This document shows, piece by piece, positions 18,040 to 48,345 of a stretch of 48,809 nucleotides of DNA (positions within the stretch are counted from its first letter, which is position 1; each line of letters begins with the position of its first letter). Position numbers and translations under genes: made by a program. Location: the NCBI GenBank assembly GCA_963844965.1, contig CAWJQC010000001.1, positions 1 through 48,809 of the forward strand. The letters run 5' to 3'. The notes under the pieces were generated by a model. It searched no databases. It saw only the letters and a list, made by a program, of their open reading frames with translations, and had not been told where the DNA came from. Source of the DNA: an uncultured bacterium (GTDB taxonomy: Bacteria > Patescibacteriota > Minisyncoccia > UBA6257 > 2-01-FULL-56-20).

Positions 18040-18252
18040 ATCTGGTTGCTACATTGTTGCACTAAAAAGCGCGGAAAATCAAGCCCGGTAGTGGTTCTGC
18101 GATTGTAATTCGGATTGTATAGTTATCGCTGCACGAGTTCTCCTTGTTTGCTATTTTGTCGTAACAGGCAATGAAAAATCGTTCCGAATTGCGGTGGGTA
18201 TTGTCGCAGAACTACTACCAGGCAAGCCGTGTTATAATTCAAATGAAATGTG

Positions 18253-18376
18253 TCCCGTTAGAGACCGCTTCGCTACGGGAACGCCTCAATTACATAAACC
18301 ATGCCTTATTTGTTAAAAATAATAATGACAGATAACGATTCGTCTAACCGGCGAAGCGTTCCCTGTCTCTAACGGG
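18253..18376 (+). promoter_or_regulatory. structured 5' leader of the pil operon: long imperfect inverted repeat whose 3' arm contains the pilM start codon
   Basis: GTCCCGTTAGAGACcgcttcgctacgggaacgcc ... ggcgaagcgttccctGTCTCTAACGGGAT-GG (14-bp perfect core plus flanking complementarity); ATG at 18377. Confidence 0.3.
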
Positions 18377-19480: not shown

Positions 19481-19578
19481 AATTTCTAATTACCAATTTC
19501 TAATTTCTAAATAAATCCCAAATTACAATTTCCAAATTGTTTAGAAATTAGGTATTAGAAATTGGAAATTTAAAGTAC
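19481..19578. repeat. AT-rich intergenic palindromic element (AATTTCTAATT...CCAATTTCTAAATAAAT...TTGTTTAGAAATTAGGTATTAGAAATTGGAAATTT)
   Basis: Homologous to the element at 20841-20968. Confidence 0.5.
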
Positions 19579-20139: not shown

Positions 20140-20198
20140 AAAAATTAAAAATTTCCCACAGCCTTTAATTTTTTGATGTTTAATCTTCAATTTGTTTC

Positions 20199-20840: not shown

Positions 20841-20968
20841 TAATGAAAATTTCTAATTTCTAATATCCAATTTCTAAATAAATTTTAATATCCCAAATCA
20901 CAAAATTTATAATTTTAGCCATTAAGATTTTGATATTGTTTAGAAATTAGGATTTAGAAATTGGAAAT
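20841..20968. repeat. second copy of the AT-rich intergenic palindromic element
   Basis: aatttctaatttctaatatccaatttctaaataaat...ttgtttagaaattaggatttagaaattggaaattt. Confidence 0.5.
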
Positions 20969-21268
20969 TTGATAACCATGGCCATAGTCATTGAGGAGGA
21001 AAAAAACAGAATCAGTCCAATCAGCATCGCCACTTGGCTTGTGGTGCTTATCATTATCGGCCTCGCCGCTTACTATATCTTTTTCACACAGCCGGAGCTT
21101 ATTGAAGTTGCGGCCCCGTCCAATTTCCAGAACATTGACCCATTGTCAAAAATTAATCTTAATCCCGAAGATGTGGTAAACGGTTCGGGTTTCCAGTCCC
21201 TGAAGCCCACAATAACGTTGCCGGTGCCCGGCAACGCCGGAAGGGACAACCCGTTTCTGGCGCGATAA
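20969..21268 (+). CDS. small single-TM protein inside the pil operon (possible PilP-like)
   Basis: 99 aa, TM WLVVLIIIGLAAYYIFF; no recognisable family. Confidence 0.4.
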   Translation: MITMAIVIEEEKNRISPISIATWLVVLIIIGLAAYYIFFTQPELIEVAAPSNFQNIDPLSKINLNPEDVVNGSGFQSLKPTITLPVPGNAGRDNPFLAR

Positions 21269-21337
21269 GTATTGCGAAGTGCAAGGCGCGAATCGCGAAT
21301 CGGCTTGCGCCCAGCAGTCAATAATTTACACACTCAA

Positions 21338-23029
21338 ATGTCCAACGACGAACTGTTAAAACAAATACGAAAAGCGAAACTTTTGGACGAGGATGCGGTG
21401 GCCAAGCTCAGACGCGATTCGCTCCTGTCCGGCCAATCAGTTGAAAGTTTGATTTCCAATCGCCGGCTCATTGACGACGTGAAGCTCGCCACACTCAAGA
21501 GTTCGCTCCTCAACGTTCCTTATAAGAAAGTAAACGCTGGAGCTGTTGACAGCGGTCTTTTTGGGGTAATTTCCGAAGAGACGGCCAGAACTTACGGAGT
21601 CGCGCCGATTGAAGAGAGGGGAGACATGCTTGTCGTCGGGATGCTGCAGCCGGATGACGCCAAGGCGCAGGAAGCGCTCAAGTTCATTGGAGGGCAACAC
21701 CACCTGAACCTTGGGGTTTACTTGGTCTCTTACGGCGATTGGCAGGACGTTTTGAGGAGATACTCGCCCTATCGTTCGGAGGTTGAAAGAGCCGTAAGCT
21801 CTTTGAATTTGAAACCCGGAGGGAGCGGGCAGAAAATTGTCAGTCTTGACGAGGTCGGTGTCAGTGAAGACGCGCCGATTATAAAAATCGTAGCCGATAC
21901 TCTTAAGGAGGCCGTATCGGTGAGAGCTTCTGATATCCACGTTGAGCCCCAGGAAAATTATTTGCGTATCAGGTTCAGGGTTGACGGCAACCTGCGCGAG
22001 GAAGCGGCTCTTCCCGTTGAACTTTCCCAGCCAGTGGTCTCACGGATCAAGGTTATTTCCAGTTTGAAGATCGACGAGTCGCGAATTCCGCAGGACGGTC
22101 GTTTCCGGACGAAGGTTTTTGATAAATATATTGATTTCCGCGTTTCAACTTTTCCAACGCCGCTCGGTGAAAAAGTCGCAGTGCGCGTTTTGGATCCCGC
22201 GAGCGGCCTAAAGAGTTTTGAAGAGCTCGATCTTTTGTATGGCAATTTGGACAAGGTCAAAAAAGGTTTGGACAAGCCGTATGGCATGATCTTGGTCACC
22301 GGCCCAACTGGTTCCGGCAAAACAACGACGCTTTACGCTATGCTGCAGCTCTTGAACAAGGAAAATGTGAATATCGTGAGCTTGGAGGACCCGGTGGAAT
22401 ATTTTGTTTCCGGCGTCAACCAGTCTCAGGTACGTCCGGAGATAGGTTACGATTTCGCCTCGGGATTGCGGCAAATTTTGCGCCAGGATCCCGATACCAT
22501 CATGGTCGGCGAGATCAGAGACAACGAAACCGCGGGACTCGCGATACAATCAGCATTGACCGGCCACCTCGTCCTTTCCACCCTGCACACGAACAATTCG
22601 GCGGGCGTCATACCACGGCTCATAGATATGAAAGTTGAACCGTTCCTTTTGCCGGTTTCACTGAACCTTATGTTGTCGCAAAGGTTGGTGGGTTCGCTTT
22701 GCGAGAGTTGTAAAGCGGCGGAGACCGCGTCTCCGGATGTGGAAAAATTGATTAAGAGAGCTCTGGACGAACTGCCTCCGAACATCAGTTCAAAATACGG
22801 CTCGCCGTACAAAATTTTCCACAGCAAGGGCTGCCCAAAATGCAGGGGGCGGGGCGTTGTCGGCCGCACCGCGCTTTACGAAGTGTTGGAAATGACGCCC
22901 GGGCTTGAAGAGGTCATAATGAATGGGCCGACGGCACAAAAGGTTTTGAAGGAAGCGAAAAGCCAGGGGATGGTGAGCTCTGCGGCAGGACGGCGTTCTC
23001 AAAGCCCTGGACGGCAGAGTTTCAATTGA
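21338..23029 (+). CDS. pilB: type IV pilus assembly ATPase PilB (GspE family); true C-terminus DGVLKALDGRVSIEEVIRETEEI lies in the +1 frame ending at 23060, so there is an apparent 1-nt indel near 22976-22983
   Basis: N-terminal T2SE_Nter region, Walker A LVTGPTGSGKTTT, Walker B and Asp box (DPDTIMVGEIRD), His box (GHLVLSTLHTN), CxxC...CPKCRG zinc motif; start chosen at ATG 21338 (MSNDELLKQIRKAK). Confidence 0.85.
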   Translation: MSNDELLKQIRKAKLLDEDAVAKLRRDSLLSGQSVESLISNRRLIDDVKLATLKSSLLNVPYKKVNAGAVDSGLFGVISEETARTYGVAPIEERGDMLVVGMLQPDDAKAQEALKFIGGQHHLNLGVYLVSYGDWQDVLRRYSPYRSEVERAVSSLNLKPGGSGQKIVSLDEVGVSEDAPIIKIVADTLKEAVSVRASDIHVEPQENYLRIRFRVDGNLREEAALPVELSQPVVSRIKVISSLKIDESRIPQDGRFRTKVFDKYIDFRVSTFPTPLGEKVAVRVLDPASGLKSFEELDLLYGNLDKVKKGLDKPYGMILVTGPTGSGKTTTLYAMLQLLNKENVNIVSLEDPVEYFVSGVNQSQVRPEIGYDFASGLRQILRQDPDTIMVGEIRDNETAGLAIQSALTGHLVLSTLHTNNSAGVIPRLIDMKVEPFLLPVSLNLMLSQRLVGSLCESCKAAETASPDVEKLIKRALDELPPNISSKYGSPYKIFHSKGCPKCRGRGVVGRTALYEVLEMTPGLEEVIMNGPTAQKVLKEAKSQGMVSSAAGRRSQSPGRQSFN

Positions 23030-23107
23030 AGAAGTTATCAGGGAAACGGAAGAGATATAATATGGTAAAATTAAAAATGAAAGATTAAAAATAAAATTTT
23101 TTAATCT

Positions 23108-24208
23108 TTGGTATTTGATATTTTATTTTTTATCGTGGATAACTACAAAGAAAAACTCAGGGACCTTTTGGTGACGACGGCCAGGCAAAACGCCTCAGAT
23201 TTGCATTTGGCGGTTGGGCGTCGGCCAACGTTGCGTTTGGACGGAGTTCTCGTGCCGTTGCAGAAAGAGCCGATAACGACGCCGGAGGTGGCGGAGGGGC
23301 TGATCGGCGGACTGCTTACGCCGGAGCTTAAGGAAAAATTTCTCCGGGACAAGCAAGTTGACTTCGCTTACGGCCTTGAGGACAAGGCCCGATTTCGTGT
23401 GAATGTCTTTATGCAGAGAGGGTATCTTGCTGCCGCTTTGCGTCTGATTCCCGCAAGGATAAGGACAATTGAAGAACTTGGCTTGCCGCCGATTCTGCAT
23501 GATTTCACGAGATTGTCGCAAGGATTCATTCTGGCCGTGGGTCCCGCTGGACATGGCAAATCGTCAACCCTGGCTGCGATTCTGGATGAAATTAATCACA
23601 CAAGGTCCGACCACATTATCACCATTGAAGACCCGATTGAATATTTATTCACTCAGGACAGGTGCATTGTCTCACAAAGGGAAGTGGGAAACGACACGCC
23701 CACGTTCCACTCCGCCCTGCGCACGGTTTTGCGCCAGGACCCCGACGTAATCATGGTGGGCGAGATGCGCGATGCCGTTTCAATTTCCACGGCGATGACG
23801 GCCGCGGAAACCGGCCACCTCGTCTTTTCAACGCTCCACACCAATTCCGCCGCCCAGACGGTAGATCGCATCATTGATTCTTTCCCTTCCGGCCAGCAGG
23901 GCCAGGTCATATCGCAGCTTGCGGCCACTTTGGTTGCCATTGTTTCCGAGCGGCTTCTGCCGCGTGTTTCCGGCGGACGCGTTCCCGCGATGGAAATCAT
24001 GCTCGTGAACCCGGCGATCAGAAATCTCATACGTGAGAGGAAAATTTACCAGATAGATCTTGTGATTGAAACAAGTATGCAGGAAGGAATGGTGACCCTG
24101 AACCGTTCGCTCGTTAATCTTATAAAGAACAAGGAAGTTTCGCTTGAGAACGCAGAGCTTTACTCGCTGAATCCCGCCGAACTCCGGGTGCTTTTGGAAC
24201 GAATCTAA
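23108..24208 (+). CDS. pilT: twitching-motility ATPase PilT
   Basis: Walker A AVGPAGHGKSSTLAA, DPDVIMVGEMRD, GHLVFSTLHTN; 366 aa. Confidence 0.85.
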   Translation: MVFDILFFIVDNYKEKLRDLLVTTARQNASDLHLAVGRRPTLRLDGVLVPLQKEPITTPEVAEGLIGGLLTPELKEKFLRDKQVDFAYGLEDKARFRVNVFMQRGYLAAALRLIPARIRTIEELGLPPILHDFTRLSQGFILAVGPAGHGKSSTLAAILDEINHTRSDHIITIEDPIEYLFTQDRCIVSQREVGNDTPTFHSALRTVLRQDPDVIMVGEMRDAVSISTAMTAAETGHLVFSTLHTNSAAQTVDRIIDSFPSGQQGQVISQLAATLVAIVSERLLPRVSGGRVPAMEIMLVNPAIRNLIRERKIYQIDLVIETSMQEGMVTLNRSLVNLIKNKEVSLENAELYSLNPAELRVLLERI

Positions 24209-24303
24209 TTACTCAATTATGCGATTAACGAACTGCGGATTGACGGATCGGATTCATTCGTTAATTCGTTGATGCGTTAATCCTTTAATTTCGGATTTAA
24301 ATA

Positions 24304-25524
24304 ATGAAGTTTAAATACCAAGCGAAAACAAAAAGCGGGGAGATGCAGGTTGGCTACGTGGAGGCGGGAAATCGCGACGCCGCAGCGAACATCCTCGCCG
24401 GACACGAGCTTTTCATTCTGAGCTTGGAATCGGCAGAGAAGGGGGGTTTTCTGGAGAACATCACAAGTTATTTTGGCCGCGTGAAGCGGAAGGATATGAT
24501 TATCTTCACGCGGCAGCTTGCAACGCTTCTTGAGGCGCGCCTGCCGCTGAGCACCGCCCTTAAGACCCTTGAGGGCCAGATGAAGCAGTCGGTTTTGAAA
24601 GAAGCGGTAAGACAAATTGGCGAAGACATAGACGCCGGCTTGTCTTTTTCCCAGGCGATGGAGCGCCAAGGCAAGGTTTTCCCGGCGTTTTACATTGAAA
24701 TGGTTAAGGCGGCGGAGGTTACGGGCAACATGAACGAAATTGCCGGCTTTTTGGCGGATTATGCGGAAAGGGAGGGTGAATTACTGAGCAAGGCGGCGTC
24801 GGCGATGATCTACCCGGGGATAGTGGTCGGACTTTTCCTTGTGGTTCTTTTGATCATGGTGGTTTATGTCTTCCCGCAACTTTTGCCGATCTTTCAACAA
24901 TCCAACGTGCAGCTTCCCATATACACGCAAATTCTCCTGGGTTTCGGGACCTTCCTTGCCAAGTGGTGGTTCGCTGTTCTTATAGTTCTGGCTTTTCTCG
25001 CCGCCCTGGTTTTCGATTACGCGCGTACGCCGGAAGGAGAGGCGTTGATCGACGATTTCAAAATAAAACTGCCTCTTTTAAAAAGAGTATTTATGCCGAT
25101 TACTCTGGCGAGGTTTTCCAACGCTGCCGCGCTTTTGATACACGGCGGGATTCCCATCGCCCAGACATTGGAAATTATCGGCCACATGGTGGGAAATGTT
25201 CTCTATAAGGACGTCATGCACGATGTCGCCGCGGATGTCCGCCAGGGCGAGCTTCTCTCGCAAAGCATAGGAAAATACCCGGAATACTTTCCGCCTCTCG
25301 TCACGCAAATGATCTCGGTCGGAGAAACGACCGGAAAGATAGAACAGATTTTCAGCCGCCTGTCGTTGTTCTACAGCCGCGAAGCCGATTCCGTTATGAA
25401 CAATTTGGTTGATTTGATCCAGCCGCTTATGATGGTCGTTATAGGCGTGATGGTGGGCTTTCTCTTTGCCTCAATTTTGATACCGCTTTACAGCCTGACG
25501 GCGAACATGGGAAGCGGCGGGTAA
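24304..25524 (+). CDS. pilC: type IV pilus platform protein PilC (GspF family)
   Basis: 406 aa, two T2SSF repeats, three TM segments. Confidence 0.85.
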   Translation: MKFKYQAKTKSGEMQVGYVEAGNRDAAANILAGHELFILSLESAEKGGFLENITSYFGRVKRKDMIIFTRQLATLLEARLPLSTALKTLEGQMKQSVLKEAVRQIGEDIDAGLSFSQAMERQGKVFPAFYIEMVKAAEVTGNMNEIAGFLADYAEREGELLSKAASAMIYPGIVVGLFLVVLLIMVVYVFPQLLPIFQQSNVQLPIYTQILLGFGTFLAKWWFAVLIVLAFLAALVFDYARTPEGEALIDDFKIKLPLLKRVFMPITLARFSNAAALLIHGGIPIAQTLEIIGHMVGNVLYKDVMHDVAADVRQGELLSQSIGKYPEYFPPLVTQMISVGETTGKIEQIFSRLSLFYSREADSVMNNLVDLIQPLMMVVIGVMVGFLFASILIPLYSLTANMGSGG

Positions 25525-25563
25525 GGCGGGACTCGCGCCGTTTGCGCTCTCAGCGCGTCGATA

Positions 25564-25572
25564 TGGTATAAT
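25564..25572 (+). promoter_or_regulatory. extended -10 promoter TGGTATAAT upstream of the first pilin gene
   Basis: TGnTATAAT read directly. Confidence 0.45.
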
Positions 25573-25650
25573 TTAAGGGTATGATTCAAGTGAAACCGGC
25601 TCACTCTACTCATGGCCGGAGAAAGGTCGGGAATTAAACCGAAAAAACTT

Positions 25651-26154
25651 ATGGCAATGTTAAGAACTAGGAAAGGATTCACTTTGATAGAAATATTGAC
25701 CGTGGTGGCAATTATCGCTATTTTGGCGTCCATCATATTGGTCGGTTTGTCTTCTGCCCGGACATCGGCCCGCGACGCGCGGAGAATCGCCGACTTGGAT
25801 CAGATACGGACGGCGATGGAGCTTTACTTCAATAAGGTGGGTCATTATCCGACCGATTGTTCTGCGGTGAATGCAAATAGCGTCACTTGGTCAACGATCC
25901 AGGGCGACTTGACTGGCGCTGGTATTGGCGTGACCACGGTTGCCGATGATCCGCTGGCTAATCCAGCTAGTCCGCAAACTAGCGTGCATTATGGGTATTC
26001 TCCTACGACAACCGGTGGGTATGATCTTAGTGCGGTACTGGAAGTTTCCGGCAACTCTGCTCTGAACACTTCTATAAAGGGGAATCCCCCCCCGAATGCG
26101 CCGGCTAACTGTAGTCTGAGTTGCAACGGCCAGAATTACTGCATAGGCATGTAG
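25651..26154 (+). CDS. pilA: type IV pilin (probable major pilin), prepilin leader MAMLRTRKG|FTLIE
   Basis: Class III signal peptide, G-1, F+1, E+5, hydrophobic alpha-1 helix TVVAIIAILASIILVGL; own promoter and downstream hairpin. The upstream ATG at 25612 is rejected because an in-frame stop intervenes. Confidence 0.8.
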   Translation: MAMLRTRKGFTLIEILTVVAIIAILASIILVGLSSARTSARDARRIADLDQIRTAMELYFNKVGHYPTDCSAVNANSVTWSTIQGDLTGAGIGVTTVADDPLANPASPQTSVHYGYSPTTTGGYDLSAVLEVSGNSALNTSIKGNPPPNAPANCSLSCNGQNYCIGM

Positions 26155-26207
26155 GAAAAATACGCATCAAGTCCGGTGCGTTTATCCCTGGTTTTTTTGT
26201 GTGTGTT

Positions 26208-26240
26208 CGCCGAACCTCCGATTTTAGCCGGAGGTTCGAT
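26208..26240 (+). terminator. hairpin (CGAACCTCCG-ATTTTAG-CCGGAGGTTCG) after pilin 1, possible terminator or attenuator
   Basis: 10-bp perfect stem read directly; the downstream T-tract is weak. Confidence 0.35.
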
Positions 26241-26293
26241 GTTTTCGGCGGATCATGTTTGACGCGCGCTTGCGGGCAGGTTGAACGGCGGTT

Positions 26294-26302
26294 TGCTATA
26301 AT
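26294..26302 (+). promoter_or_regulatory. extended -10 promoter TGCTATAAT upstream of the second pilin gene
   Basis: TGnTATAAT read directly. Confidence 0.45.
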
Positions 26303-26358
26303 AAAGCATATATCAAGAAAGGTCGAGCTTGGAGTTAGACACACAATCTGCGACACAA

Positions 26359-26838
26359 ATGAAGAAGAACGGTTTCACTCTGATTGAGATGCTTATCGTC
26401 GTTACCATCATCGCGCTTCTTTCGTCTGTCATATTGGTCGGTTTGCAGCCGGCGAGAACCGCCGCGCGCGACGCGAGGCGCATCGTTGACCTGAACGAGG
26501 TCAAAAACGGCTTGGAACTTTATTTCAACAAGTGCGGTTATTATCCGGGCCAAATCCAGCCGGCTTTGAACTGTGGTCCGTTCGTGCAAATTTTCACCTG
26601 GCAGGACCTGACTGCCGCGCTTACGGGAAGCAATCTTGACATTGACGCCATACCGGACGACCCGACAACAGGAGCTGATTATTTATACGCTACAGACACG
26701 AACGGGAAGCATTACATCCTCGGCGCCACGCTTGAGGATCCGAACAATCCGGTGCTTCAGACCAGCATCCACGACGATAAAATTACTTTTTCCGTTCCGT
26801 TCAGCTGTAATGCGCCGGTGTATTGCACGCACCTTTGA
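26359..26838 (+). CDS. type IV pilin 2, leader MKKNG|FTLIEMLIVV. ORF track begins at TTG 26329; ATG 26359 preferred
   Basis: Prepilin cleavage motif, hydrophobic helix, similar N-terminal domain to pilin 1 (ARDARRI..L..ELYFNK). Confidence 0.75.
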   Translation: MKKNGFTLIEMLIVVTIIALLSSVILVGLQPARTAARDARRIVDLNEVKNGLELYFNKCGYYPGQIQPALNCGPFVQIFTWQDLTAALTGSNLDIDAIPDDPTTGADYLYATDTNGKHYILGATLEDPNNPVLQTSIHDDKITFSVPFSCNAPVYCTHL

Positions 26839-26904
26839 GGAGAGTTTTCTCGTTGAAGTTTAGAACTCCGACGTTCGGCATTCTGCGTTCAGGATATTCT
26901 AAAG

Positions 26905-27774
26905 ATGTCCATTTTGCTTTTCATTTTAGGCGCGGCTTTCGGAAGTTTTATCGGTGTCGTAGCTGACAGGTATGAGCCGAATGGTTTTTTGTTCTCAGGA
27001 AAGACCCTGGGCGGCAGGTCGCATTGCAACACCTGCGGCGTTACTTTAAAGTGGTTTGAACTTGTTCCCGTTTTGAGTTTCCTCGCTCAGCGCGGCCGTT
27101 GCCGGAGCTGCGGCGCGAGGCTGGGCCTTAAATATCCCGCCGTGGAGATTTTATCCGGCTTGATTTTCGCGTTCGTTCCGATACGCCTCGCCAGCCAATT
27201 CCAAACTCTGCATCCCGCGTTTTACGTCCTCGCTCCTCTTTGGATCCTTGCCCTTCTTGTTTTGCTCATCATAACGCTCATAGACCTGCGCCTCTATATT
27301 ATTCCCGACGAGGCGAATATTTTACTGGGGATCATCGGTGTTTTGGTCGCGCTCGCGTCACTTCCCGATTTCGGGCCGGTAAGCGGTTCGTTTCTCGGAC
27401 CCTTCGCGTTGTTTTTCGGGTGGCGGAACAATATCTGGACGAATCATCTTTTCGCCGCCGCCTTTGGGGGGATTTTTTTCGCTCTCATAATACTAATAAC
27501 GCGCGGACGGGGAATGGGCATGGGAGATTTGAAATTCGCCGTTCCCTTGGGTTTTCTTTTCGGCTGGCCGGACATGCTTCTCGTGATCGGCATCGGTTTC
27601 ATCGTCGGTTCCGTTTGCGGCGTTTGGCTCATGATCAGGAAGAAAAAGGGGCTGAAGAGCCCGCTGCCTTTCGGTCCGTTTCTGTCTCTTTCCGCCGCCC
27701 TTGTGTTTTTCTTCGGATATCAGATTGTAAATTTGTATTTTGCGCTGTTTTATATCTGGCCGTTCAGGATTTAG
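26905..27774 (+). CDS. pilD: prepilin peptidase PilD (A24 family) with N-terminal CxxC..CxxC zinc domain
   Basis: 289 aa, CNTCGV...CRSCGA tetracysteine, 7-8 TM helices, conserved Asp-containing motifs (ITLIDLRLYIIPDE). Confidence 0.85.
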   Translation: MSILLFILGAAFGSFIGVVADRYEPNGFLFSGKTLGGRSHCNTCGVTLKWFELVPVLSFLAQRGRCRSCGARLGLKYPAVEILSGLIFAFVPIRLASQFQTLHPAFYVLAPLWILALLVLLIITLIDLRLYIIPDEANILLGIIGVLVALASLPDFGPVSGSFLGPFALFFGWRNNIWTNHLFAAAFGGIFFALIILITRGRGMGMGDLKFAVPLGFLFGWPDMLLVIGIGFIVGSVCGVWLMIRKKKGLKSPLPFGPFLSLSAALVFFFGYQIVNLYFALFYIWPFRI

Positions 27775-27783
27775 AATATATAT

Positions 27784-28449
27784 ATGCCCAAGAGGAGAAC
27801 TTCCGGACCTATCTCTGCGCCGGAACAAGAAGTCCGCGGCTTACGGCGCTCAAGGCGCGCCTCTCATTCGGCGCGGGGGTTTACTCTCATTGAACTTTTG
27901 GTTGTCATCGCCGTGACCGTTCTCCTCTCAACCTATATCATCAGCTATCAGAGGACGGGCCAGCGGCAGATTCTTCTCTACGTTGAGAGTCAAAAGATAG
28001 CGAGTTTGATCTTGAAGGCGAAATCGTTGGCGATAGAATCGTTCGTTGACGTGAGTCAGGGCAATTGCGGTTATGGCTTGAGGGTGGATTACAGCGGAAA
28101 AAGTTACGGCATATTTTACTACGCGACTTCCACCACCGACAATGAGTCAAAGTATATCCAATGCCAAGAAATCAAAAGGAGCGGCAGCTTGGCGCCGGGC
28201 CGCATAGTCCCTTTCTCGGATACGACACAGCTTAATTCCGAACTTGTTTTTTGGACACCCCCGCCCGGGAACGCCACGCCGCCACTTTACTACGTTCTTT
28301 TCGTACCGCCGGATCCCGAAACACTGCTTGTCGACCAGAGTGGTGACATAGTTTCAGGTCCAGGTTCCGAGGCCGTCTATCTTGAAACCAAGGACGGTCT
28401 GGCGAGTACCACGGTCGTCGTTAATCCAGCCGGTCAGGTGAATTTCTAA
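27784..28449 (+). CDS. minor pilin / pseudopilin with long N-terminal leader (..ARG|FTLIELLVVIAV)
   Basis: Prepilin-type N-terminal cleavage/methylation motif at residues about 30-45. Confidence 0.65.
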   Translation: MPKRRTSGPISAPEQEVRGLRRSRRASHSARGFTLIELLVVIAVTVLLSTYIISYQRTGQRQILLYVESQKIASLILKAKSLAIESFVDVSQGNCGYGLRVDYSGKSYGIFYYATSTTDNESKYIQCQEIKRSGSLAPGRIVPFSDTTQLNSELVFWTPPPGNATPPLYYVLFVPPDPETLLVDQSGDIVSGPGSEAVYLETKDGLASTTVVVNPAGQVNF

Positions 28450-28560
28450 ATTCAGAAAGTGGAAAATAGTAAATAGAAAATAGAAAAATCAATGCCAGCT
28501 TTAAATAGGATGAGAAGTAAAAGAAAAAAATCACCACCCTCTACTTTCTACTTTCTCCGG
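28441..28560. repeat. AT-rich palindromic intergenic element related to 8925-9040 (AAATAGAAAATAGAAAA ... CTCTACTTTCTACTTTCTCC)
   Basis: Shared TAGAAAGT/ACTTTCTA and ATAGAAAATAGAA motifs. Confidence 0.4.
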
Positions 28561-28639
28561 TGGCCGAGCACAAGGGGCAGACCCCGTATGACAACTGCGG
28601 TAGCGGCAACTCAATGCCGCAAGGAAATTAAGAAGTAAT

Positions 28640-29230
28640 ATGTTTATGCGGCATATTTTTCGCACAGTAGCAGATTTCTTGCGTTGCCGTAGGCATTGCA
28701 ACCGCAGTTGCTCTACGGGGCAGATTATAATTGAGGCCATAGTCGCTTTATCGGCTCTGACCATCTGCTTCGTGGGGATTTTTGGGCTTATTTCAACTTC
28801 GCTCCACTACAACCGTTTCATTGCCAACGACTACACGGGCACCTACCTCGCGGCCGAGGGAATAGAGGTGGTCAAGAACCTTTTGGATTCCAATGTCATA
28901 TCCGGACGCGAGTGGGGCTGCGGATTTATGAACGGCTCTTATGAGTTGACTTATGATACGCAGTTCAAAAGTACGGTTTGTTCGCAATCCGTACTTGATC
29001 CCAATCAATCTAGAAGTTTATACATGGATTCAGGTAGCCACTTATACAACTACAATGTCGCCGCGGCCGGCACCGCTTTTACGCGCGTCGTGACGATCGA
29101 GGTTCTCGAAAGTGACTCGAACGGGAATCCTCAGGAAATGCAGGTCAATTCCGTTGTTTCCTGGAATCAGGGGGCGGGCAAGCAAAGCGTCAATTTGGAA
29201 GACAGATTTTTCAATTGGCACGCGCAGTAA
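28640..29230 (+). CDS. pilin-like protein (..STG|QIIIEAIVALSALTICFVGIFGLIS), Cys-containing C-terminal domain
   Basis: Gly followed by hydrophobic helix with Glu at +5; four Cys in the globular part. Confidence 0.5.
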   Translation: MFMRHIFRTVADFLRCRRHCNRSCSTGQIIIEAIVALSALTICFVGIFGLISTSLHYNRFIANDYTGTYLAAEGIEVVKNLLDSNVISGREWGCGFMNGSYELTYDTQFKSTVCSQSVLDPNQSRSLYMDSGSHLYNYNVAAAGTAFTRVVTIEVLESDSNGNPQEMQVNSVVSWNQGAGKQSVNLEDRFFNWHAQ

Positions 29231-29241
29231 ATAAATAAAAA

Positions 29242-29841
29242 ATGAAAAATCAAAAATCAAAATTGAATTCCGGATTTGCCCCCACGCCAGAACGAGAAGC
29301 TCGAGATTCAAGGCGCTCCGCGCATACTTCTCGTTTGGTGTGGGGGTTTACCATGATCGAGCTTTTGGTCGCCATCGCCCTTTTTTCCATCGTTGTGAGT
29401 ATCGCCGTCGGCGGACTCGTGAACGCGATACGGATTCAGCGGCAGATCGCGGCTTTGATCGCGGCGAACAGCAACGCGAGTTTCGCTCTGGAGCAAATAG
29501 CGCGCGACGTAAGGACCGGGTCGGACTTCAGCGGCGCAAACTGCTCCGGGCAGCAATGCTCAGAACTTGATTTTATGAACGCTTTCGGGCAGGCGACAAG
29601 CTACCGGCTGAGGAGCGGCAAGATTGAGAAAGGAACTAACGGCGCATTCCAGCCGGTCACCGGTGACAACACTGCCGTGCAATATCTCTCGTTCACGCTC
29701 ATTGGCAATCTTCCCGGGGACGGTTATCCTCCGCGGATCATTATAACTCTCGGGGTTAGTCCGTCCTCGGCCGCCGGCGGCGCGAGCGGCATTATTTCCG
29801 GGATTGAGACAACGGTGAGCGCACGGCAGCTGGATACGTGA
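29242..29841 (+). CDS. pseudopilin (PilW/GspJ-like), leader ..VWG|FTMIELLVAIALFSIVV
   Basis: Prepilin-type N-terminal motif. Confidence 0.65.
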   Translation: MKNQKSKLNSGFAPTPEREARDSRRSAHTSRLVWGFTMIELLVAIALFSIVVSIAVGGLVNAIRIQRQIAALIAANSNASFALEQIARDVRTGSDFSGANCSGQQCSELDFMNAFGQATSYRLRSGKIEKGTNGAFQPVTGDNTAVQYLSFTLIGNLPGDGYPPRIIITLGVSPSSAAGGASGIISGIETTVSARQLDT

Positions 29842-39542: not shown

Positions 39543-42997
<3,455 letters not shown>

Positions 42998-44012: not shown

Positions 44013-44614
44013 GCGTTTGCCGTCAAGCAATATCGTCAAGGTTGGAGCTCTGTAAGGAAGCGAAGCTTCTACGGCCTTGAAGTAGTCAATGGGGTTGATC
44101 CTTGAAAGAAAAACTTCCCTTCTTTTGTCCGCGGTGACCGGCCTTATTTCCGCGTTCGTTTTTATCATTGCCGCGTATTCTTTTTGATGTTTGGACATTA
44201 TTTCGCACATGTCTTGATTTCGCACATGTCTTGATAATATTCGGCGCAACTTGGGCACTCCTCCAGATGTTCCCTGAGAGGGTCGAGAAGTTCCGGTTCT
44301 ATTTCCGTTTTGAAGCGCTGGATTGCTTTATTCGCATAACCGACCCTCTCAATCTCCATATTGCGTATCAGAGTGAGGAGGGCGTAACTGAACATCTCCC
44401 GTTGCGGGCAATCTTCGTAGCACAGACGCGAGGTAAGAAAGTAGGTTTTGCGTTTCGCGAGAAGGTAAGAAAGCCAAAATAAACAACCCCCGCATTTTCT
44501 GGCGTGTTTTACGAGGTCGGCGTCAACCGGCCTCGTCAGATTGACGGCACGGAGCACCTTAGCCAACTGCGTGCATTCCGATTTTCGCGGCCTTGCCTTT
44601 TGTGTTTTTCGCAC
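43992..44614 (-). pseudogene. zinc-finger-motif protein (..LREHLEECPSCAEYYQDMCEI..) split into ORFs 44198..44614 and 43992..44258 by a perfect 17-bp tandem duplication
   Basis: Removing one copy of TTTCGCACATGTCTTGA restores a single 202-aa ORF; both ORFs encode QDMCEI from the two copies. Confidence 0.5.
44201..44234. repeat. perfect 17-bp tandem duplication (TTTCGCACATGTCTTGA x2)
   Basis: Read directly. Confidence 0.9.
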
Positions 44615-44762
44615 AGCCCCTCCTTTTTATGGAATCTCAATGACCGTCTAACTTTATTTTAACGCCGATTGCGGATATTCGCTAATCATTGCTTCGTCTT
44701 GGGTCTCGGCTGCTGATTTGTTTTTTTCTCGGATTTTTATTAAATTTAGATTGTGCGGCCGT

Positions 44763-44830
44763 GGTGTAGTTTACCCCGTTGGATCGCGTAGCGATTCCAT
44801 CGGGGCCCGGTTAACACGTCCCCCTGCTTG
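44763..44830 (+). other. pseudo-tRNA: tRNA-Asp 5' half (GCGGCCGTGGTGTAG .. CGGTTAACACGTCCCCCTG) with a 37-nt hairpin insertion in the D-loop and no 3' half
   Basis: Aligned by eye against the intact tRNA-Asp 110 nt downstream. Confidence 0.45.
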
Positions 44831-44874
44831 CCCCGCACCAAATTTATAAAATTATGAGATTTCGAGCGGTTCGC

Positions 44875-44949
44875 GCGGCCGTGGTGTAGCCTGGTTAACA
44901 CGTCCCCCTGTCACGGGGAATATCACGGGTTCAAATCCCGTCGGCCGCG
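44875..44949 (+). tRNA. tRNA-Asp (anticodon GUC); flanking sequence extends the acceptor helix to about 17 bp (AGCGGTTCGCGCGGCCG / CGGCCGCGCGAACCGCT)
   Basis: GCGGCCG-TG-GTGT-AGCCTGGTTA-ACAC-G-TCCCC-CTGTCAC-GGGGA-ATAT-CACGG-GTTCAAAT-CCGTG-CGGCCGC-G. Confidence 0.85.
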
Positions 44950-45024
44950 CGAACCGCTGGAACGCCTTCGTTTCAAATATTCGATTTCAGCAATAGCACT
45001 AAATGTAAAAATTTGGTGCGGGTT

Positions 45025-45062
45025 ACGGGGAAGGTTGTGGGTTCAAATCCCATCGCCCGCGC
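45025..45062 (+). other. degenerate tRNA-Asp 3'-half fragment (TACGGGGAAGGTTGTGGGTTCAAATCCCATCGCCCGCGC)
   Basis: About 80% identical to the 3' half of the intact tRNA-Asp. Confidence 0.4.
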
Positions 45063-45089
45063 AAAGACAAAGACAAGGTGGGGGATAAA

Positions 45090-45122
45090 GGGAAGATCAC
45101 GGGTTCAAATCCCGTCGGCCGC
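45090..45122 (+). other. exact 29-nt copy of the tRNA-Asp 3' end (ATCACGGGTTCAAATCCCGTCGGCCGCGC), candidate att-site remnant; an inverted 14-nt copy (GACGGGATTTGAAC) lies at 45179-45192
   Basis: Direct repeat of tRNA positions about 47-75, read directly. Confidence 0.5.
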
Positions 45123-45129
45123 GCTAAAA

Positions 45130-45164
45130 CCAAAAGACGATGACCTTGTGCCATCGTCTTTTGG
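45130..45164. other. perfect 13-bp stem-loop (CCAAAAGACGATG-accttgtgc-CATCGTCTTTTGG)
   Basis: Read directly; possible terminator of the tRNA cluster transcript. Confidence 0.4.
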
Positions 45165-45348
45165 TTCCTAATGTAGTCGACGGGATTTGAACGGGGATGG
45201 GGTCGGTCAGACCGCAGTCAGAGGGTATCGCGGACGCGGTCAAGGAATCGCGGTTTTCGTTGCCGTTGCTGTATGCTATACTGTAATTAATAGTTCCAAC
45301 TCTTGCGCTTCTCTTGTTCTTGGTGTATGCTCGAAAAACATGAAAATG

Positions 45349-45666
45349 GAAAAAGTCCTCCAAAAAGAAGTTTATAATCTTCAGTCGTTGTTTCCTAAAG
45401 AAGTAACCGTTTCTGTGCGTCGTTCGGAAGACGGCGGTTTTGCCGCCGAGATTTTATCTTACCCGCGAACATTTACCGAAGCCGATACTTTTTCAGAGCT
45501 TATTGAAATGATCAACGATGCGCTGTATACCTACTTTGATGTTCCAAAAAAATTCGTTTCTTTTATGCCCACCTATCTTCCTCCACTCGATTCTTCGGTG
45601 AGAGACCTCATCGGTCTCCCCGTACACATGAAACCGGAAAAAATTACATTAGAATTGGCGAGGTGA
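45349..45666 (+). CDS. hicB: HicB-like antitoxin (UPF0150/HicB N-terminal fold)
   Basis: 105 aa, FAAEILSYPRTFTEADTFSELIEMINDALYTYFD; GTGA overlap with downstream hicA-like gene; TGCTATACT -10-like element at 45281-45289. Confidence 0.55.
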   Translation, partial: EKVLQKEVYNLQSLFPKEVTVSVRRSEDGGFAAEILSYPRTFTEADTFSELIEMINDALYTYFDVPKKFVSFMPTYLPPLDSSVRDLIGLPVHMKPEKITLELAR

Positions 45667-45890
45667 AACCGATAGAAATCAAAACAACGGATTGTTCTGG
45701 TAACAACCTTATCCGAGCCGCAGAGCACTGCGGCTTTCTCGTTCAACAGGGCAAGAAGCATGTGAAAGTAAAAACCGCAGAAGGAAGGTTTGTTGCCATG
45801 ATTCCGAGGCATAGCCATATTAAGCGAGAAACCGCGAAAGGCATCGCTGAGGCGCTGCAAAAGTTTGGAGGCAACGTGGCAATGAACTAA
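45663..45890 (+). CDS. hicA: HicA-like toxin (YcfA family mRNA interferase)
   Basis: 75 aa, GFLVQQGKKHVKVKTAEGRFVAMIPRHSHIKRETAKGIAEAL. Confidence 0.6.
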   Translation: MKPIEIKTTDCSGNNLIRAAEHCGFLVQQGKKHVKVKTAEGRFVAMIPRHSHIKRETAKGIAEALQKFGGNVAMN

Positions 45891-45937
45891 GCCACCCCGC
45901 ACCAAGCCCGACTCGTTTTACATAAGGCAGAATCAAA

Positions 45938-45965
45938 CCCCCACCTTTTCGGAAAAAGGTGGGGG
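45938..45965. repeat. 28-bp perfect palindrome CCCCCACCTTTTCGGAAAAAGGTGGGGG between convergent genes
   Basis: Read directly; family recurs at 47423-47596 and 48272-48345. Confidence 0.7.
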
Positions 45966-45988
45966 TTGAGTTTGCCTATCTGCCTGTC

Positions 45989-47422: not shown

Positions 47423-47596
47423 GTCAACCCCCACCTTTTCGGGAAAAAGACGGGGGTCAACCCCCGCCTTTTCGGAAAAAGACGGGGGTCAACCCCCGCC
47501 TTTTCGGAAAAAGATGGGGGTCAACCCCCGCCTTTTCGGAAAAAGATGGGGGATTGACCCGCCTTTTCGCGCATCGCGCAAAAGGCGGGGGTTGAC
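47423..47596. repeat. tandem array of about 4.5 copies of a 31-32-bp unit (GTCAACCCCCGCCTTTTCGGAAAAAGACGGGG), each a pair of small hairpins; terminal variant with CGCGCATCGCGC loop; no spacers
   Basis: Read directly; ORFs 47291..47609 are translations of the repeat. Confidence 0.75.
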
Positions 47597-47655: not shown

Positions 47656-47986
47656 ATGAAATATAAGAACACGCTCCAAAAAGGGTCCGCGCGCTTCATC
47701 GTTTTTCGCGAGGGGGATACGTGGTACTGCGTTTGTCTGGAATTCAATATTGTTGAATCGGGAAGCACCCCCTCAGGAGGCGCTGCTTCTTTTGGTAGAA
47801 GCGGTGGAAGGGTATTTAGAATCGGCTCGGAAGATAAAAGCCAGACCCGGTATTTTGAACCAGAAATCAGACCCCGAGTACGAAGAATTATGGGATGCCG
47901 CCGAAGAACATAAAAAGGTTCCGGCAAAGGAAATTTTTTCTTTTGGCAGATTGAATCTTGCCGGAAGAACCTTTGCCGCCGCATAA
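47656..47986 (+). CDS. hicB: HicB-like antitoxin, frameshifted at a C5 homopolymer (47771-47775): ORFs 47656..47913 and 47750..47986
   Basis: N-part ARFIVFREGDTWYCVCLEFNIVESG, C-part in the other frame QEALLLLVEAVEGYLESARK. Confidence 0.45.
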
Positions 47987-48002
47987 CAAATCGAAACTCC
48001 GT

Positions 48003-48236
48003 ATGCCAAGAGGTCTGTACAACTGGACGGCGGAGGATGTCGTCCGTTTTCTCAAAGAAAAAGGATTTGTATTGAACTATACTAAGGGAAGTCATTATTT
48101 CTATATCGGGAGATACGGCGGAGCGTTTCGCCAAGTATGCGTGCCTTTTCATGGCAGCCGAGTGATCAAACCGCGGACACTCAAAGGTATGATTCGCCAA
48201 TCCGGCATTCTGAAAAGTGAGTGGCTGGCAGGGTGA
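48003..48236 (+). CDS. hicA: HicA-like toxin (YcfA family). ORF track starts at 47958
   Basis: WTAEDVVRFLKEKGFVLNYTKGSHYFY..GAFRQVCVPFHGSRVIKPRTLKGMIRQSGI. Confidence 0.6.
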   Translation: MPRGLYNWTAEDVVRFLKEKGFVLNYTKGSHYFYIGRYGGAFRQVCVPFHGSRVIKPRTLKGMIRQSGILKSEWLAG

Positions 48237-48271: not shown

Positions 48272-48345
48272 GACCCCCACCTTTTCGGAAAAAGGTGGGG
48301 GTGAACCCCCACCTTTTCGCGCATCGCCCAAAAGGTGGGGGTTGT
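48272..48345. repeat. two further palindromes of the GGGGG/CCCCC family (CCCCCACCTTTTCGGAAAAAGGTGGGGG and CCCCCACCTTTTCGCGCATCGCCCAAAAGGTGGGGG)
   Basis: Read directly, immediately 3' of the second hicA. Confidence 0.7.

Follow-up and report, generated by a model that had tools for sequence, protein, structure and literature searches.

A nested tRNA-Asp locus of Patescibacteria is probably a stack of tRNA replacements by inverted-repeat cassettes

Results

An intact tRNA-Asp gene lies between the halves of older tRNA-Asp genes

The tRNA-Asp locus described here is probably a stack of tRNA-Asp replacements by inverted-repeat cassettes and not a decayed genomic island. It lies in a window of 48,809 nt which, by homology search, is an entire Patescibacteria contig from a metagenome assembly. 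An older tRNA-Asp gene is interrupted, between its G34 and position 35, by a cassette of about 196 nt (44827-45022); the ends of this cassette are inverted repeats, (CTTG)CCCCGCACCAAATTT… and …AAATTTGGTGCGGG, its cargo is a complete tRNA-Asp(GUC), and halves of the older gene flank it on both sides. The nest runs from a 5' half broken after G34 through CTTG and the left arm, the intact tRNA-Asp, the right arm (arm') and 3' relic 1 (type B) to a degenerate arm and 3' relic 2, the 7/7 partner of the 5' half, with gaps of 14-190 nt between the tRNA pieces. The features are as follows.

44711..44754, + strand: native upstream flank, probable promoter region of the original tRNA-Asp gene (aligns with the flank in L001)
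44755..44826, + strand: 5' relic of the oldest (native, type A) tRNA-Asp, positions 1-15 and about 16-34 (similarity to the intact gene)
44770..44805/6, + strand: palindromic 36-37-nt D-loop insertion in the 5' relic, TTTA-CCCCGTTGGATCGC GTA GCGATTCCATCGGGG (hairpin)
44827..44854, + strand: cassette left end, CTTG and left arm CCCCGCACCAAATTTATAAAATTA (inverted repeat I1)
44861..44874, + strand: leader strand of the extended acceptor helix, TTCGAGCGGTTCGC (inverted repeat I2)
44875..44950, + strand: intact tRNA-Asp(GUC), the cassette cargo (ARAGORN; Rfam tRNA, 66.6 bits)
44949..44962, + strand: trailer strand of the extended acceptor helix, GCGAACCGCTGGAA (inverted repeat and survey of 106 tRNAs)
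45000..45022, + strand: cassette right arm, TAAATGTAAAAATTTGGTGCGGG (inverted repeat I1)
45023..45062, + strand: 3' relic 1, positions about 35-74 of a different (type B) tRNA-Asp allele (identity to L004)
45077..45084, + strand: degenerate right-arm copy 5' of relic 2, GGTGGGGG (direct-repeat family D1)
45085..45124, + strand: 3' relic 2, the 3' half of the native type A gene (identity to the intact gene)
45128..45166, + strand: terminator-like hairpin of the native downstream module, AACCAAAAGACGATG...CATCGTCTTTTGGTT (inverted repeat I5)
45178..45192, - strand: anti-T-arm segment of 15 nt, CGACGGGATTTGAAC, complementing the type A T arm (complementarity)

An earlier, sequence-only reading of this DNA had listed one intact tRNA-Asp and four partial copies, and every one of these elements is present, some at slightly corrected coordinates. 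The intact gene spans 44875-44950 by ARAGORN and 44875-44949 by Rfam, and CCA is not encoded. It is bracketed by inverted repeat I1 (44832-44854 / 45000-45022, 23 nt, 87%), which is absent from that reading. Within I1 lies inverted repeat I2 (44861-44881 / 44942-44962, 21 nt, 95%), and the 7-bp acceptor stem continues into 10 contiguous leader/trailer pairs (17 bp altogether). That this helix is unusual, as already suspected, is borne out: among 106 tRNAs of the window and related loci it is the sole case with a 10-bp extension, the remainder having 0-5 extra pairs. At both gathering and permissive settings, Rfam returned tRNA only, plus tRNA-like noise (Plastid-ycf2, mascRNA and tmRNA T-arm fragments).

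The 5' relic sits at the position held by an intact tRNA-Asp in the relative L001, and the flank upstream of it aligns with the flank 5' of that intact gene with a score of 22 (shuffles 9.1 ± 1.6, maximum 16). Its first 15 nt (44755-44769) are identical to positions 1-15 of the intact tRNA (15/15), and 44805-44826 matches the intact gene at 21/22 positions, with an exact run at 44809-44826 that ends on the anticodon base G34. The hairpin that interrupts its D loop, reported earlier and present with a length of 36-37 nt, folds at -20.5 kcal/mol (z = -4.4); hairpins built alike (CCCC...GGGG) occupy relic D or T loops in L038, L081, L091, L102 and L106. The acceptor strand GCGGCCG of the 5' relic forms 7/7 pairs with CGGCCGC of 3' relic 2.

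The copy of the 3' half at 45023-45062, previously called degenerate, does exist. This relic 1 and positions 40-77 of the L004 tRNA-Asp share 97% identity; hence, the relic is a separate allele and not a decayed inner gene. Its T stem pairs 5/5 via compensatory changes (GTGGG/CCCAT vs ACGGG/CCCGT), and its acceptor strand, CGCCCGC, forms only 6/7 pairs with the upstream 5' relic. The exact 29-nt copy of the tRNA 3' end noted before (45096-45124) is likewise present, as the final part of the longer 3' relic 2, and is identical to the intact tRNA-Asp. Relic 2 is 97% identical to positions 42-76 of L045, and its variable loop, AGATC, is that of the relatives, the inner gene having ATATC. Direct-repeat family D1 joins the two 3' relics (45015-45076 vs 45077-45138, 74%), and the native downstream module follows relic 2. 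The junctions of the cassette read ...CTG|CTTGCCCC... and ...GCGGG|TTAC..., with no common core.

The nested layout recurs around several tRNAs

We recovered 28 ligA-linked tRNA-Asp loci from related genomes by synteny, independently of the arm sequence, and 2 of the 28 (L026 and L038) have the nested layout with the arms of the window. Scanning metagenomes for arm' plus T arm yielded 41 matches; in about 25 an intact tRNA lies immediately upstream, and a left arm is present as well in 17 distinct ones. Since these loci were chosen by arm sequence, their arm conservation is partly circular, which does not hold for the window, L026 and L038. In total there are 20 distinct nested loci (about 17 from metagenomes), with tRNAs Asp, Glu, Pro, Ala, Arg, Val and Ile. 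The sequence CCCGCACCAA stands at the left junction of L026, L038 and the 17 distinct metagenome loci, and TTGGTGCGGG stands immediately 5' of the tRNA 3' half in the nested metagenome loci. Chance is excluded because this architecture and this repeat come back in many independent contigs.

Variant arms surround tRNAs Met, Gln and Arg(TCT), and other arm families likewise begin and end with CCCCG…CGGGG (L081, Met; L092, Arg-TCT). Arm length varies from 11 to 23 nt, and stand-alone arm hairpins occur in L083, L081 and L089. The arms were rejected as an ordinary tRNA flank, as the tRNA-Gly and tRNA-Arg of the window lack them and other 8-mer matches are at chance level; they were also rejected as a tRNA 3' end (…GCACCA) or primer-binding site, as the variant families lack CCA.

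Wherever the anticodon of a relic is readable, in the window and in comparable loci, it equals that of the inner tRNA (3' relics: Arg TCG, Val CAC, Pro CGG, Met CAT, Asp GTC, Ile TAT, Ala TGC), and sequence comparison shows that inner gene and relic are different alleles. The insertion sites are loops, namely the D loop, positions 33/34 to 36/37, and the T loop, and the base preceding the insert is G34 (Asp), A35 (Ile) or G36 (Pro). As points against the cassette reading, the junctions are heterogeneous, with a 4-nt YTYR or CRAG at one side only, and several Asp relics have an additional A after G39. A second 3' relic resembling the inner gene is found in 3/3 synteny-derived cases; for these three, a simple cassette model needs two rounds, which again counts against that reading.

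In L145, the closest relative with data, tRNA-Asp is a plain, un-nested type B gene, and the sequence of L144 stops short of the tRNA locus. Two further points count against the cassette reading: near-identical genomes that would form an empty/filled pair were not found, the LigA of the nearest relative being 79% identical, and no enzyme is linked to the arms. Small GIY-YIG genes (PF01541) lie inside or adjoining broken-and-restored tRNA genes in L021, L041 and L064, and no nuclease gene lies in or adjoining the cassettes with CCCCGCACC arms.

These comparisons bear on an alternative that we consider unlikely, in which each cassette is what is left of a larger integrative element or prophage that carried its own tRNA and did not rebuild the target gene, everything having been deleted except the essential tRNA and the ends. 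Its principle is documented in mycobacteriophages (PMC10865867), the polarity of the arms (CCCC… on the left, …GGGG on the right) is that expected of inverted attP half-sites, and att-like repeats of tRNA 3' ends surround small inserts in the relatives L010, L012, L066 and L041. However, all 20 two-arm loci consist of the tRNA and spacers of 5-70 nt alone, without intermediate sizes or gene remnants, and neither a common core nor a shared repeat of 2 nt or 6-8 nt is visible at the two junctions. An integrase was found neither nearby nor in the scanned ORFs (at least 90 aa) of the contig, and neither integrase nor transposase is among the 25 most frequent Pfam families of 94 neighbour ORFs at 25 comparable loci. 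Viral contigs gave 0 matches to arm plus T arm or to arm, tRNA-sized gap and arm. A separate set of 22 short-loop hairpin matches in viral contigs was set aside as generic GC-rich hairpins of unrelated phages.

The outer genes are defective in several loci

The 5' relics of Arg and Val end in the D loop, without positions 22-33, and L108 and L082 have neither a 5' relic nor a left arm; L108 shares its inner tRNA-Glu with L094, and the 3' relics of the two differ by one base. Extra bases or mismatches occur in anticodon stems of relics, C8 is found in the relics of L091 and L114, and arms decay without compensation in L097 and L106. Since several relics are unable to fold or lack one half, we take the outer genes to be dead; as judged from their sequences, the outer relics are probably dead or dispensable. 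Acceptor and T arms are better kept in relics than anticodon arms: among 18 canonical-arm loci with clear pairing, the outer acceptor stem pairs 7/7 in 14 and 6/7 in 4, and the outer T stems of canonical-arm loci are 5/5 paired. As a point against the cassette reading, these well-kept arms and the hairpins in relic loops could mean that the outer RNA structure matters.

It is very unlikely that the outer gene is a functional tRNA whose inserts, one of them hosting a second tRNA, are spliced out or otherwise removed, as a bacterial counterpart of the archaeal multi-intron and split tRNAs. The insert positions fit such a tRNA and the least decayed junctions are clean; moreover, the outer acceptor and T stems are nearly always intact, the minimum-free-energy fold pairs the outer halves around the inner tRNA (z = -6.4), and group I introns occupy such positions in Patescibacteria (PMC13011429; L027). 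Splicing does not fit the missing parts of the Arg, Val, L108 and L082 relics, the flawed anticodon stems, the C8 relics, or the uncompensated decay of the arms, and in the window the 5' half adjoins a 3' half that is not its partner. Nor can a bulge-helix-bulge be drawn at the junctions inspected, where 7-9 nt on the 5' side and 4-6 nt on the 3' side separate the anticodon stem from the arm helix, with no 3-4-3 arrangement. In 44500-45400, Rfam gave 0 matches to Intron_gpI or other ribozymes even at E <= 10.

The downstream module is native and no integrase was found in the scanned neighbourhood

The inverted T-arm fragment listed in the sequence-only reading is present, with 15 nt instead of 14, but it is no integration scar. 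It belongs to a conserved module of a terminator-like hairpin (I5, 15 nt, 100%) and an anti-T-arm segment, the latter 100% complementary to 44929-44943 and 45103-45117. An equivalent hairpin lies 3' of tRNA-Asp in L145, L010, L012 and L066, and the anti-T-arm homologues in these four co-vary with their own T arm (e.g. TTCAAGTCC / GGACTTGAA in L066). A promoter/terminator scan of the locus was uninformative.

Downstream of the tRNA-Asp locus are a palindrome array and HicA-like ORFs, whose HicA similarity is real at 47958-48236 and weak at 45663-45890; a solo left-arm copy (45895-45905) follows the first of them. The window also encodes type IV pilus and ComFC-like proteins, which we take as DNA-uptake machinery. 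As already remarked from the sequence, there is no integrase: a Pfam search of the scanned ORFs of at least 90 aa across the whole contig gave 0 recombinases, integrases or transposases.

The sequence-only reading had explained the fragments as attL/attR duplications left by repeated insertion and loss of an island at the tRNA-Asp 3' end, with HicBA modules and palindromes as its residue. Insertion into the tRNA gene was indeed repeated and left one functional copy, direct repeats of the tRNA 3' end do exist, and the HicA-like ORFs, the palindrome array and the solo arm could be read in the same way, yet we regard integrase-made attL/attR sites as highly improbable here. The breaks are in the anticodon loop, at 34/35, the 5' half is also present, the halves lie too close to one another for an island (about 50-190 nt, or 14-190 nt over all tRNA pieces), and no short direct repeat is seen at both junctions. 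Left unaccounted for are the conserved inverted-repeat arms around the intact gene and a relic of a foreign allele (relic 1) between that gene and the native 3' half. Nothing links the HicA-like ORFs to the tRNA structure. Furthermore, the observation that this reading itself had named as its refutation has been made: L026, L038 and about 17 distinct metagenome loci show like fragments in island-free contexts, beside housekeeping genes such as those for Mur ligases, GatA and sigma-70. It is hardly credible that tRNA-Asp was duplicated in tandem here and then decayed, or that the assembly is a chimera made at a repeated tRNA sequence. Short distances and direct repeats could suggest slippage, and the contig is from a metagenome, but relic 1 comes from another allele, the pieces are arranged symmetrically about the intact tRNA, and independent assemblies of many samples show the conserved arms with their parts in a constant order.

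Discussion

Under the cassette reading, the native gene would have been of type A, as in L001, its 5' half and 3' relic 2 remaining within the native flanks. A cassette with a type B tRNA-Asp would then have broken it, and next a type A cassette would have broken B or, equivalently, recombination would have taken place via the shared arm and the B 3' half. The end state would be 5'(A)–arm–A–arm'–3'(B)–degenerate arm'–3'(A). The inner tRNA-Asp(GUC), presumably functional to judge from its sequence, would be the only gene of the nest to work, and the native promoter that precedes the 5' relic would probably drive its transcription. The inner tRNA would fold apart from its look-alike relics thanks to the arm helix and the 17-bp leader/trailer helix, and these helices may offer a double-strand-specific processing site.

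We propose that a non-autonomous cassette would enter a tRNA gene loop by break-and-repair or by structure-directed insertion, and that the only events to survive would be those in which the anticodon of the cargo equals that of the single-copy target. Later spread between genomes could proceed by uptake and recombination, the conserved tRNA halves serving as homology. Counting against the cassette reading, homologous recombination alone cannot account for the same arms around at least 7 different tRNAs. For the enzyme of the first insertion, the small putative GIY-YIG nucleases in the tRNA genes of relatives are the only candidates seen.

A wider claim, which we advance tentatively, is that these loci represent a new class of tiny palindromic mobile elements in Patescibacteria, with ends (YTYR)CCCCG…CGGGG and specificity for the loops of tRNA genes or transcripts, the tRNA-bearing versions being self-complementing replacement cassettes that horizontally turn over single-copy tRNA genes. 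If this is true, the insertion chemistry would be new, structure-directed and without target duplication or a recombinase core; insertion could even take place at the RNA level, in a manner like reverse splicing, and then be copied into DNA. In the literature on the arm sequence, nested or split bacterial tRNAs and MITEs in tRNA genes, we did not find this layout described.

In these reduced genomes each tRNA gene is present once and is essential, and vertical, stable inheritance is therefore assumed. A gene-breaking, self-substituting cassette would give a simple route to horizontal turnover of tRNA alleles, and such turnover would explain why close relatives have a mixture of "archaeal-looking" and "bacterial-looking" types of tRNA-Asp. 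tRNA finders, and island finders that take tRNA fragments for att sites, can also be misled by relic halves, by pseudo-tRNAs bearing hairpins and by nested genes. Structure-directed insertion, if it occurs, would point to a new enzyme that recognizes tRNA-shaped nucleic acid, and the arm helix may show how Patescibacteria process tRNA precursors.

Comparison with known systems

Archaeal split, permuted and multi-intron tRNAs resemble the locus in having halves that lie apart with complementary flanks and inserts in the D, anticodon and T loops; in contrast, the host here is bacterial (NAD-dependent LigA, Mur ligases, sigma-70) and the halves are defective in several loci. Bacterial rRNA intervening sequences have a long stem that is an RNase III site, and the rRNA is functional after their excision. 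They too are sporadic, hairpin-forming inserts at helix tips of a structured RNA gene, but decoding is impossible for a tRNA that is cut in its anticodon loop, and here the cargo supplies the function.

Group I introns occur in the anticodon loops of Patescibacteria tRNAs (PMC13011429; Williams 2020, doi 10.1101/2020.01.27.920355). They share with the cassette the region 33/34 to 36/37, the phylum and tRNAs including Asp, and L027 is a real example; the cassette differs in that it has no ribozyme core and no U-1/omega-G boundaries, and its host gene is replaced and not spliced. In the tRNA cluster of phage T4, the free-standing GIY-YIG homing endonuclease SegB causes break repair that favours inheritance of its tRNA region (PMC2330249). 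The GIY-YIG ORFs in the broken-and-restored tRNA genes of relatives, which are putative nucleases by sequence, are similar; in this respect the cassettes with CCCCGCACC arms differ, as they have no such gene.

Like MITEs, the cassettes are small and non-autonomous, have terminal inverted repeats, occur in many copies (20 distinct loci) and have stand-alone arm hairpins as well; unlike MITEs, they have a presumably functional tRNA cargo and target only tRNA loops. Target-site duplication was absent at the clean junctions of L081, L083, L091, L104 and L109, and no parent transposase for the arms was found among the scanned window ORFs or the 25 most frequent neighbour families.

In classical integration into tRNA genes, attB lies in the anticodon or T loop and attP carries the 3' part of the tRNA, so that the partial copy restores the gene and 3' (rarely 5') direct repeats surround the island. 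The cassette is alike in its tRNA target, in the use of loops with symmetric stems and in the partial tRNA copies that remain; it differs in having a complete new gene between the two halves of the old one.

The closest analogue of the cassette is the tRNA-dependent lysogeny of actinobacteriophages, in which an element breaks an essential host tRNA gene and supplies a complete tRNA of the same isotype (Guerrero-Bustamante & Hatfull 2024, PMC10865867). That element is a prophage of about 40-60 kb with a tyrosine integrase and a common core of about 10 bp (PMC10865867). The cassette, in contrast, has about 100-200 nt, inverted-repeat ends, no recombinase and no core repeat, and it differs further in its anticodon insertion, repeated nests, Patescibacteria host and tRNA-only cargo. 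What the two have in common is that the host tRNA is destroyed and the same-isotype tRNA of the element complements it.

Structure of the tRNA-Asp locus

Both ARAGORN and Rfam found one intact copy of tRNA-Asp(GTC) at the locus, and k-mer and repeat searches confirmed each partial copy that a sequence-only reading had listed around it. Absent from that reading was a 23-nt inverted repeat, which encloses the intact gene; its outer ends adjoin the 5' half and 3' half #1. Handles with L denote comparison loci from related genomes or metagenomes.

44755 to 44826: 5' half; tRNA positions 1-15 exact, resuming at about 44806
44832-44854: left arm CCCGCACCAAATTTATAAAATTA, half of the 23-nt inverted repeat
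44875-44949/50: intact tRNA-Asp(GTC), 66.6 bits
45000-45022: right arm TAAATGTAAAAATTTGGTGCGGG, half of the 23-nt inverted repeat
45023-45062: 3' half #1; T stem with compensatory changes (GTGGG/CCCAT)
45085-45124: 3' half #2; last 29 nt (45096-45124) as in the intact gene
45128-45192: tRNA-Asp downstream module, also in L145 (2540-2605), L010, L012 and L066
45178-45192: inverted T-arm fragment, 15 nt

The order is 5' half, CTTG plus left arm, intact tRNA, right arm, 3' half #1, a degenerate right arm GGTGGGGG and 3' half #2, and in the minimum free energy fold of the whole stretch the outer pieces pair around the inner tRNA (z = -6.4). The two segments of the 5' half are divided by a 36-37-nt hairpin (-20.5 kcal/mol, z = -4.4); its final 18 nt are exact and end at G34 of the anticodon. 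The extended acceptor helix that had been called unusual is indeed so: 10 contiguous leader/trailer pairs prolong the inner stem to 17 bp (44861-44881/44942-44962), with the discriminator base paired, and this is the sole such case among 106 tRNAs checked (0-5 extra pairs in the remainder). The helix may be a processing stem or the leftover of another arm family.

The two 3' halves differ in origin. 3' half #1 matches the tRNA-Asp of L004, an allele termed type B (acceptor GCGGGCG/CGCCCGC), with 97% identity over positions 40-77, and pairs with the upstream 5' half at only 6/7 positions; judged by its sequence, it is a type B allele rather than a decayed form of the inner gene. 3' half #2 pairs with the 5' half at 7/7, both being type A, and its variable loop is AGATC as in relatives (ATATC in the inner gene). 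L001 has an intact type A gene, and the flank preceding it aligns with the 43 nt that precede the 5' half (score 22; shuffles, 9.1 ± 1.6); 3' half #2 is followed by a terminator-like hairpin and an anti-T-arm segment, as is the intact tRNA-Asp in the four other loci with the downstream module. Hence, on pairing, upstream flank and downstream module, we read the 5' half and 3' half #2 as the native gene in its native flanks and all sequence between them as inserted.

In this module the hairpin leads to the anti-T-arm segment, 12-15 nt that form an exact complement to the T arm of the same gene, and then to GGGGTCGG…; where the local T arm differs, the segment differs with it (type A, type B and, in L066, TTCAAGTCC/GGACTTGAA). 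In L010, L012 and L066 the final 11-15 nt of the tRNA recur as a direct repeat about 230-290 nt downstream, where the module ends. No Rfam family matches it.

Recurrence of the nested layout

A tRNA-Asp shortly downstream of ligA is conserved synteny in the clade, and the same layout with the same arms occurs at two of 28 ligA-linked tRNA-Asp loci of related genomes (3/29 with the window):

L038: 5' relic (broken outer half) of type A' ending ...CTG, then CACGCCCCGCACCAAAA; inner gene of type B'; TTTTGGTGCGGGG, then the A' 3' half
L026: 5' relic of type B''; inner gene of type A''; B'' 3' half downstream

In L038 a second 3' half, of type B', follows; its T loop contains a 37-nt hairpin. Both loci were located via synteny, so the search itself does not account for their identical arms.

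Scanning metagenomes for TTGGTGCGGG, 15-21 nt and then GGTTCRAATCC gave 41 loci, about 25 with an intact tRNA directly upstream of the arm; of these, 17 distinct loci also had a 5' tRNA fragment and then CCGCACCAA ahead of the tRNA. Adding the window, L026 and L038 brings the distinct both-arm loci to 20, with inner tRNAs for Asp (8), Pro (3), Ala (3), Arg (2), Glu (2), Val (1) and Ile (1). Between the arms all 20 hold only a tRNA and spacers of 5-70 nt; hence, either the mobile unit is small or reduction has been remarkably uniform. Variant arms with the same termini (CCCCG…CGGGG) occur in L097, around a tRNA-Gln in L106, and here:

L092, 1930-2115: nested tRNA-Arg(TCT), arms CCCCGCCTGCCTAC/GTAGGCACTGCGGG
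L081, 4660-4905: nested tRNA-Met, arms CCCCGTACTAAG…/…CTTTAGTTCGGGG

Readable 3'-relic anticodons are those of the inner gene (TCG, CAC, CGG, CAT, (G)TC, TA-, -GC). Among 18 canonical-arm loci with clear pairing, the relic halves pair at 7/7 in 14 and 6/7 in 4, with T stems at 5/5. Inner gene and relic are different alleles, since their sequences differ. In viral contigs, the arm patterns did not occur together with either a T arm or a gap of tRNA size. Four arm-pattern matches without a tRNA (L093, L095, L110, L115) share TTGGTGCGGGGGGTGCGCA…TTTAGGTTC(A/G)AATCCCA and seem related to one another rather than to the nested tRNAs. L120 resembles an intron-bearing tRNA of archaeal type.

Junctions and decay of the outer genes

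Insertion points lie at 33/34 (Pro, Met), 34/35 (Asp), 35/36 (Ile) and 36/37 (Pro), and the least decayed junctions show neither duplication nor loss of bases. Inserts start with YTYR (CTTG, CTCG, CCTG, TTTA…) plus CCCC and end with GGGG. The 5' relics for Arg (L087, L098) and Val (L102) end in the D loop (…GGATAG, then CCCCGCACC) and lack positions 22-33; L108 and L082 have neither 5' relic nor left arm. L108 and L094 have the same inner tRNA-Glu, with 3' relics one base apart. Several Asp relics carry an additional A after G39 (TCATGA, TCGCGA), C8 is present in L091 and L114, and left-arm decay is uncompensated in L097 and L106. The junctions do not allow a bulge-helix-bulge to be drawn, and no Rfam intron or ribozyme matches, even at E ≤ 10. 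Hence, with relics truncated or absent, base changes, uncompensated arm decay and no bulge-helix-bulge, intron or ribozyme, the outer genes are not alive.

Small palindromes (TTTA/CTTG–CCCC…GGGG) lie in relic D loops (window, L081, L102, L106), at relic position 26/27 (L083, L081) and in relic T loops (L038, L091). The hairpin at 26/27 is stand-alone and near-identical in L081 and L083, CCCCGCACCAGAACAA(A)GTT(T/C)GGTGCG(G/A)GG. The T-loop insertions are in second 3' relics: CTTG+CCCCGTAGTTATCCGCCAAAAGCGGATATACTATCGGGG in L091 (minus strand, about 2190-2290), which has a further insertion between T stem and acceptor strand, and the 37-nt hairpin in L038 (minus strand, 4945-5035).

Arm-like sequence also occurs elsewhere in the window. 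An exact lone left arm, CCCCGCACCAA, lies at 45895-45905, directly past the stop of a weak HicA-like ORF, with no partner arm downstream (chance expectation for the 11-mer, about 0.02 per window). A palindrome array, AACCCCCACCTTTT…AAAAGGTGGGGGTT, at 45936-45967, 47423-47590 and 48273-48343 has unit stems with CCCC(G)CACC in common with the cassette arms, and GGTGGGGG matches the array version.

Genomic context

The sequence-only reading took the tRNA pieces for att-type scars of repeated integrase-mediated insertion in a decayed genomic island. Repeated insertion stands; the integrase and the island do not. Pfam scans found no integrase or transposase in the scanned ORFs (≥ 90 aa) of the window, which is the entire contig, and the same kinds of fragment recur in related genomes in housekeeping surroundings: the 94 ORFs near 25 nested loci encode Mur ligases, GatA, LigA, sigma-70, CCA-adding enzyme and ATP synthase, with no recombinase among the 25 most frequent families listed. 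The window's LigA (40910-42997) is 60-79% identical to that of Patescibacteria/Paceibacteria MAGs, and among the window's scanned ORFs Pfam identified type IV pilus genes, a ComFC-like protein, sigma-70, an ABC transporter, surface proteins and HicA (one clear, one weak). The pilus cluster (17353-29838: PilM, PilO, two T2SSE ATPases, PilC, prepilin peptidase, several pilins) and the ComFC-like protein are read as DNA-uptake machinery. An ORF at 867-1226 encodes a member of the intervening-sequence protein family of 23S rRNA (PF05635, E = 5e-23).

Small GIY-YIG ORFs (PF01541; 80-130 aa) lie in or beside broken-and-restored tRNA genes of relatives, where the attendant partial tRNA duplications leave one copy intact:

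L021, 2200-2540, minus strand: with tRNA-fMet
L041, 8270-8640: with tRNA-Asp; 17-nt inverted repeats flank the ORF; repeat of positions 60-76
L064, 6150-6575: with tRNA-Ser; 5' relic ends …GGATAG, as in the Arg and Val relics
L015, 13797-14033; L031, 12639-12872; L056, 11206-11604: further small GIY-YIG ORFs

Six of nine such ORFs in 1.2 Mb lie within about 150 nt of a tRNA. By analogy with T4 SegB (PMC2330249), this suggests nuclease-driven break repair at tRNA genes; none accompanies CCCCGCACC arms.

Proposed history

We propose that the native window gene, of type A, was first broken by the entry of an arm–B–arm' cassette. A second cassette, arm–A–arm', could then have entered the B gene, with "5'(B)–arm" lost between two direct arm copies; alternatively, the donor could have been 5'(B)–arm–A–arm'–3'(B), joined in a single recombination that crossed over in the common arm and in the B 3' half. 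The observed order would result from either route, and other crossover points would also explain the forms without a 5' relic (L108, L082).

The inner gene would be the sole functional tRNA-Asp. The spacers within the arms leave too little room for a promoter, so its transcription most likely starts from the conserved native promoter region ahead of the 5' relic. The arm helix and the 17-bp helix would keep the folding of the inner tRNA apart from the look-alike relics, and the arm helix could double as a double-strand-specific processing site. Selection would explain why cargo and target match: with one gene per anticodon, only self-complementing insertions would survive. Homology-guided recombination through tRNA halves would strengthen the match.

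Comparison with known systems

We found nothing in the literature describing nested tRNA genes or the arm sequence, and the locus belongs to a widespread, apparently undescribed family of miniature tRNA-carrying cassettes. With tRNA-dependent lysogeny (PMC10865867) it shares the principle that a host tRNA is destroyed and its replacement brought along; however, the unit here is about 100-200 nt, has inverted-repeat ends but neither integrase nor core repeat, and nests repeatedly. In a different arrangement, the tRNA-Asp of L027 (12609-12886) has a 201-nt group I-like intron after U35 (35/36), of the class described in PMC13011429, which scores below the Rfam gathering score for Intron_gpI. The cassettes resemble group I introns in position but lack a ribozyme, and resemble MITEs in size and ends but lack target duplication. 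With rRNA intervening sequences they have in common a hairpin at a loop tip.
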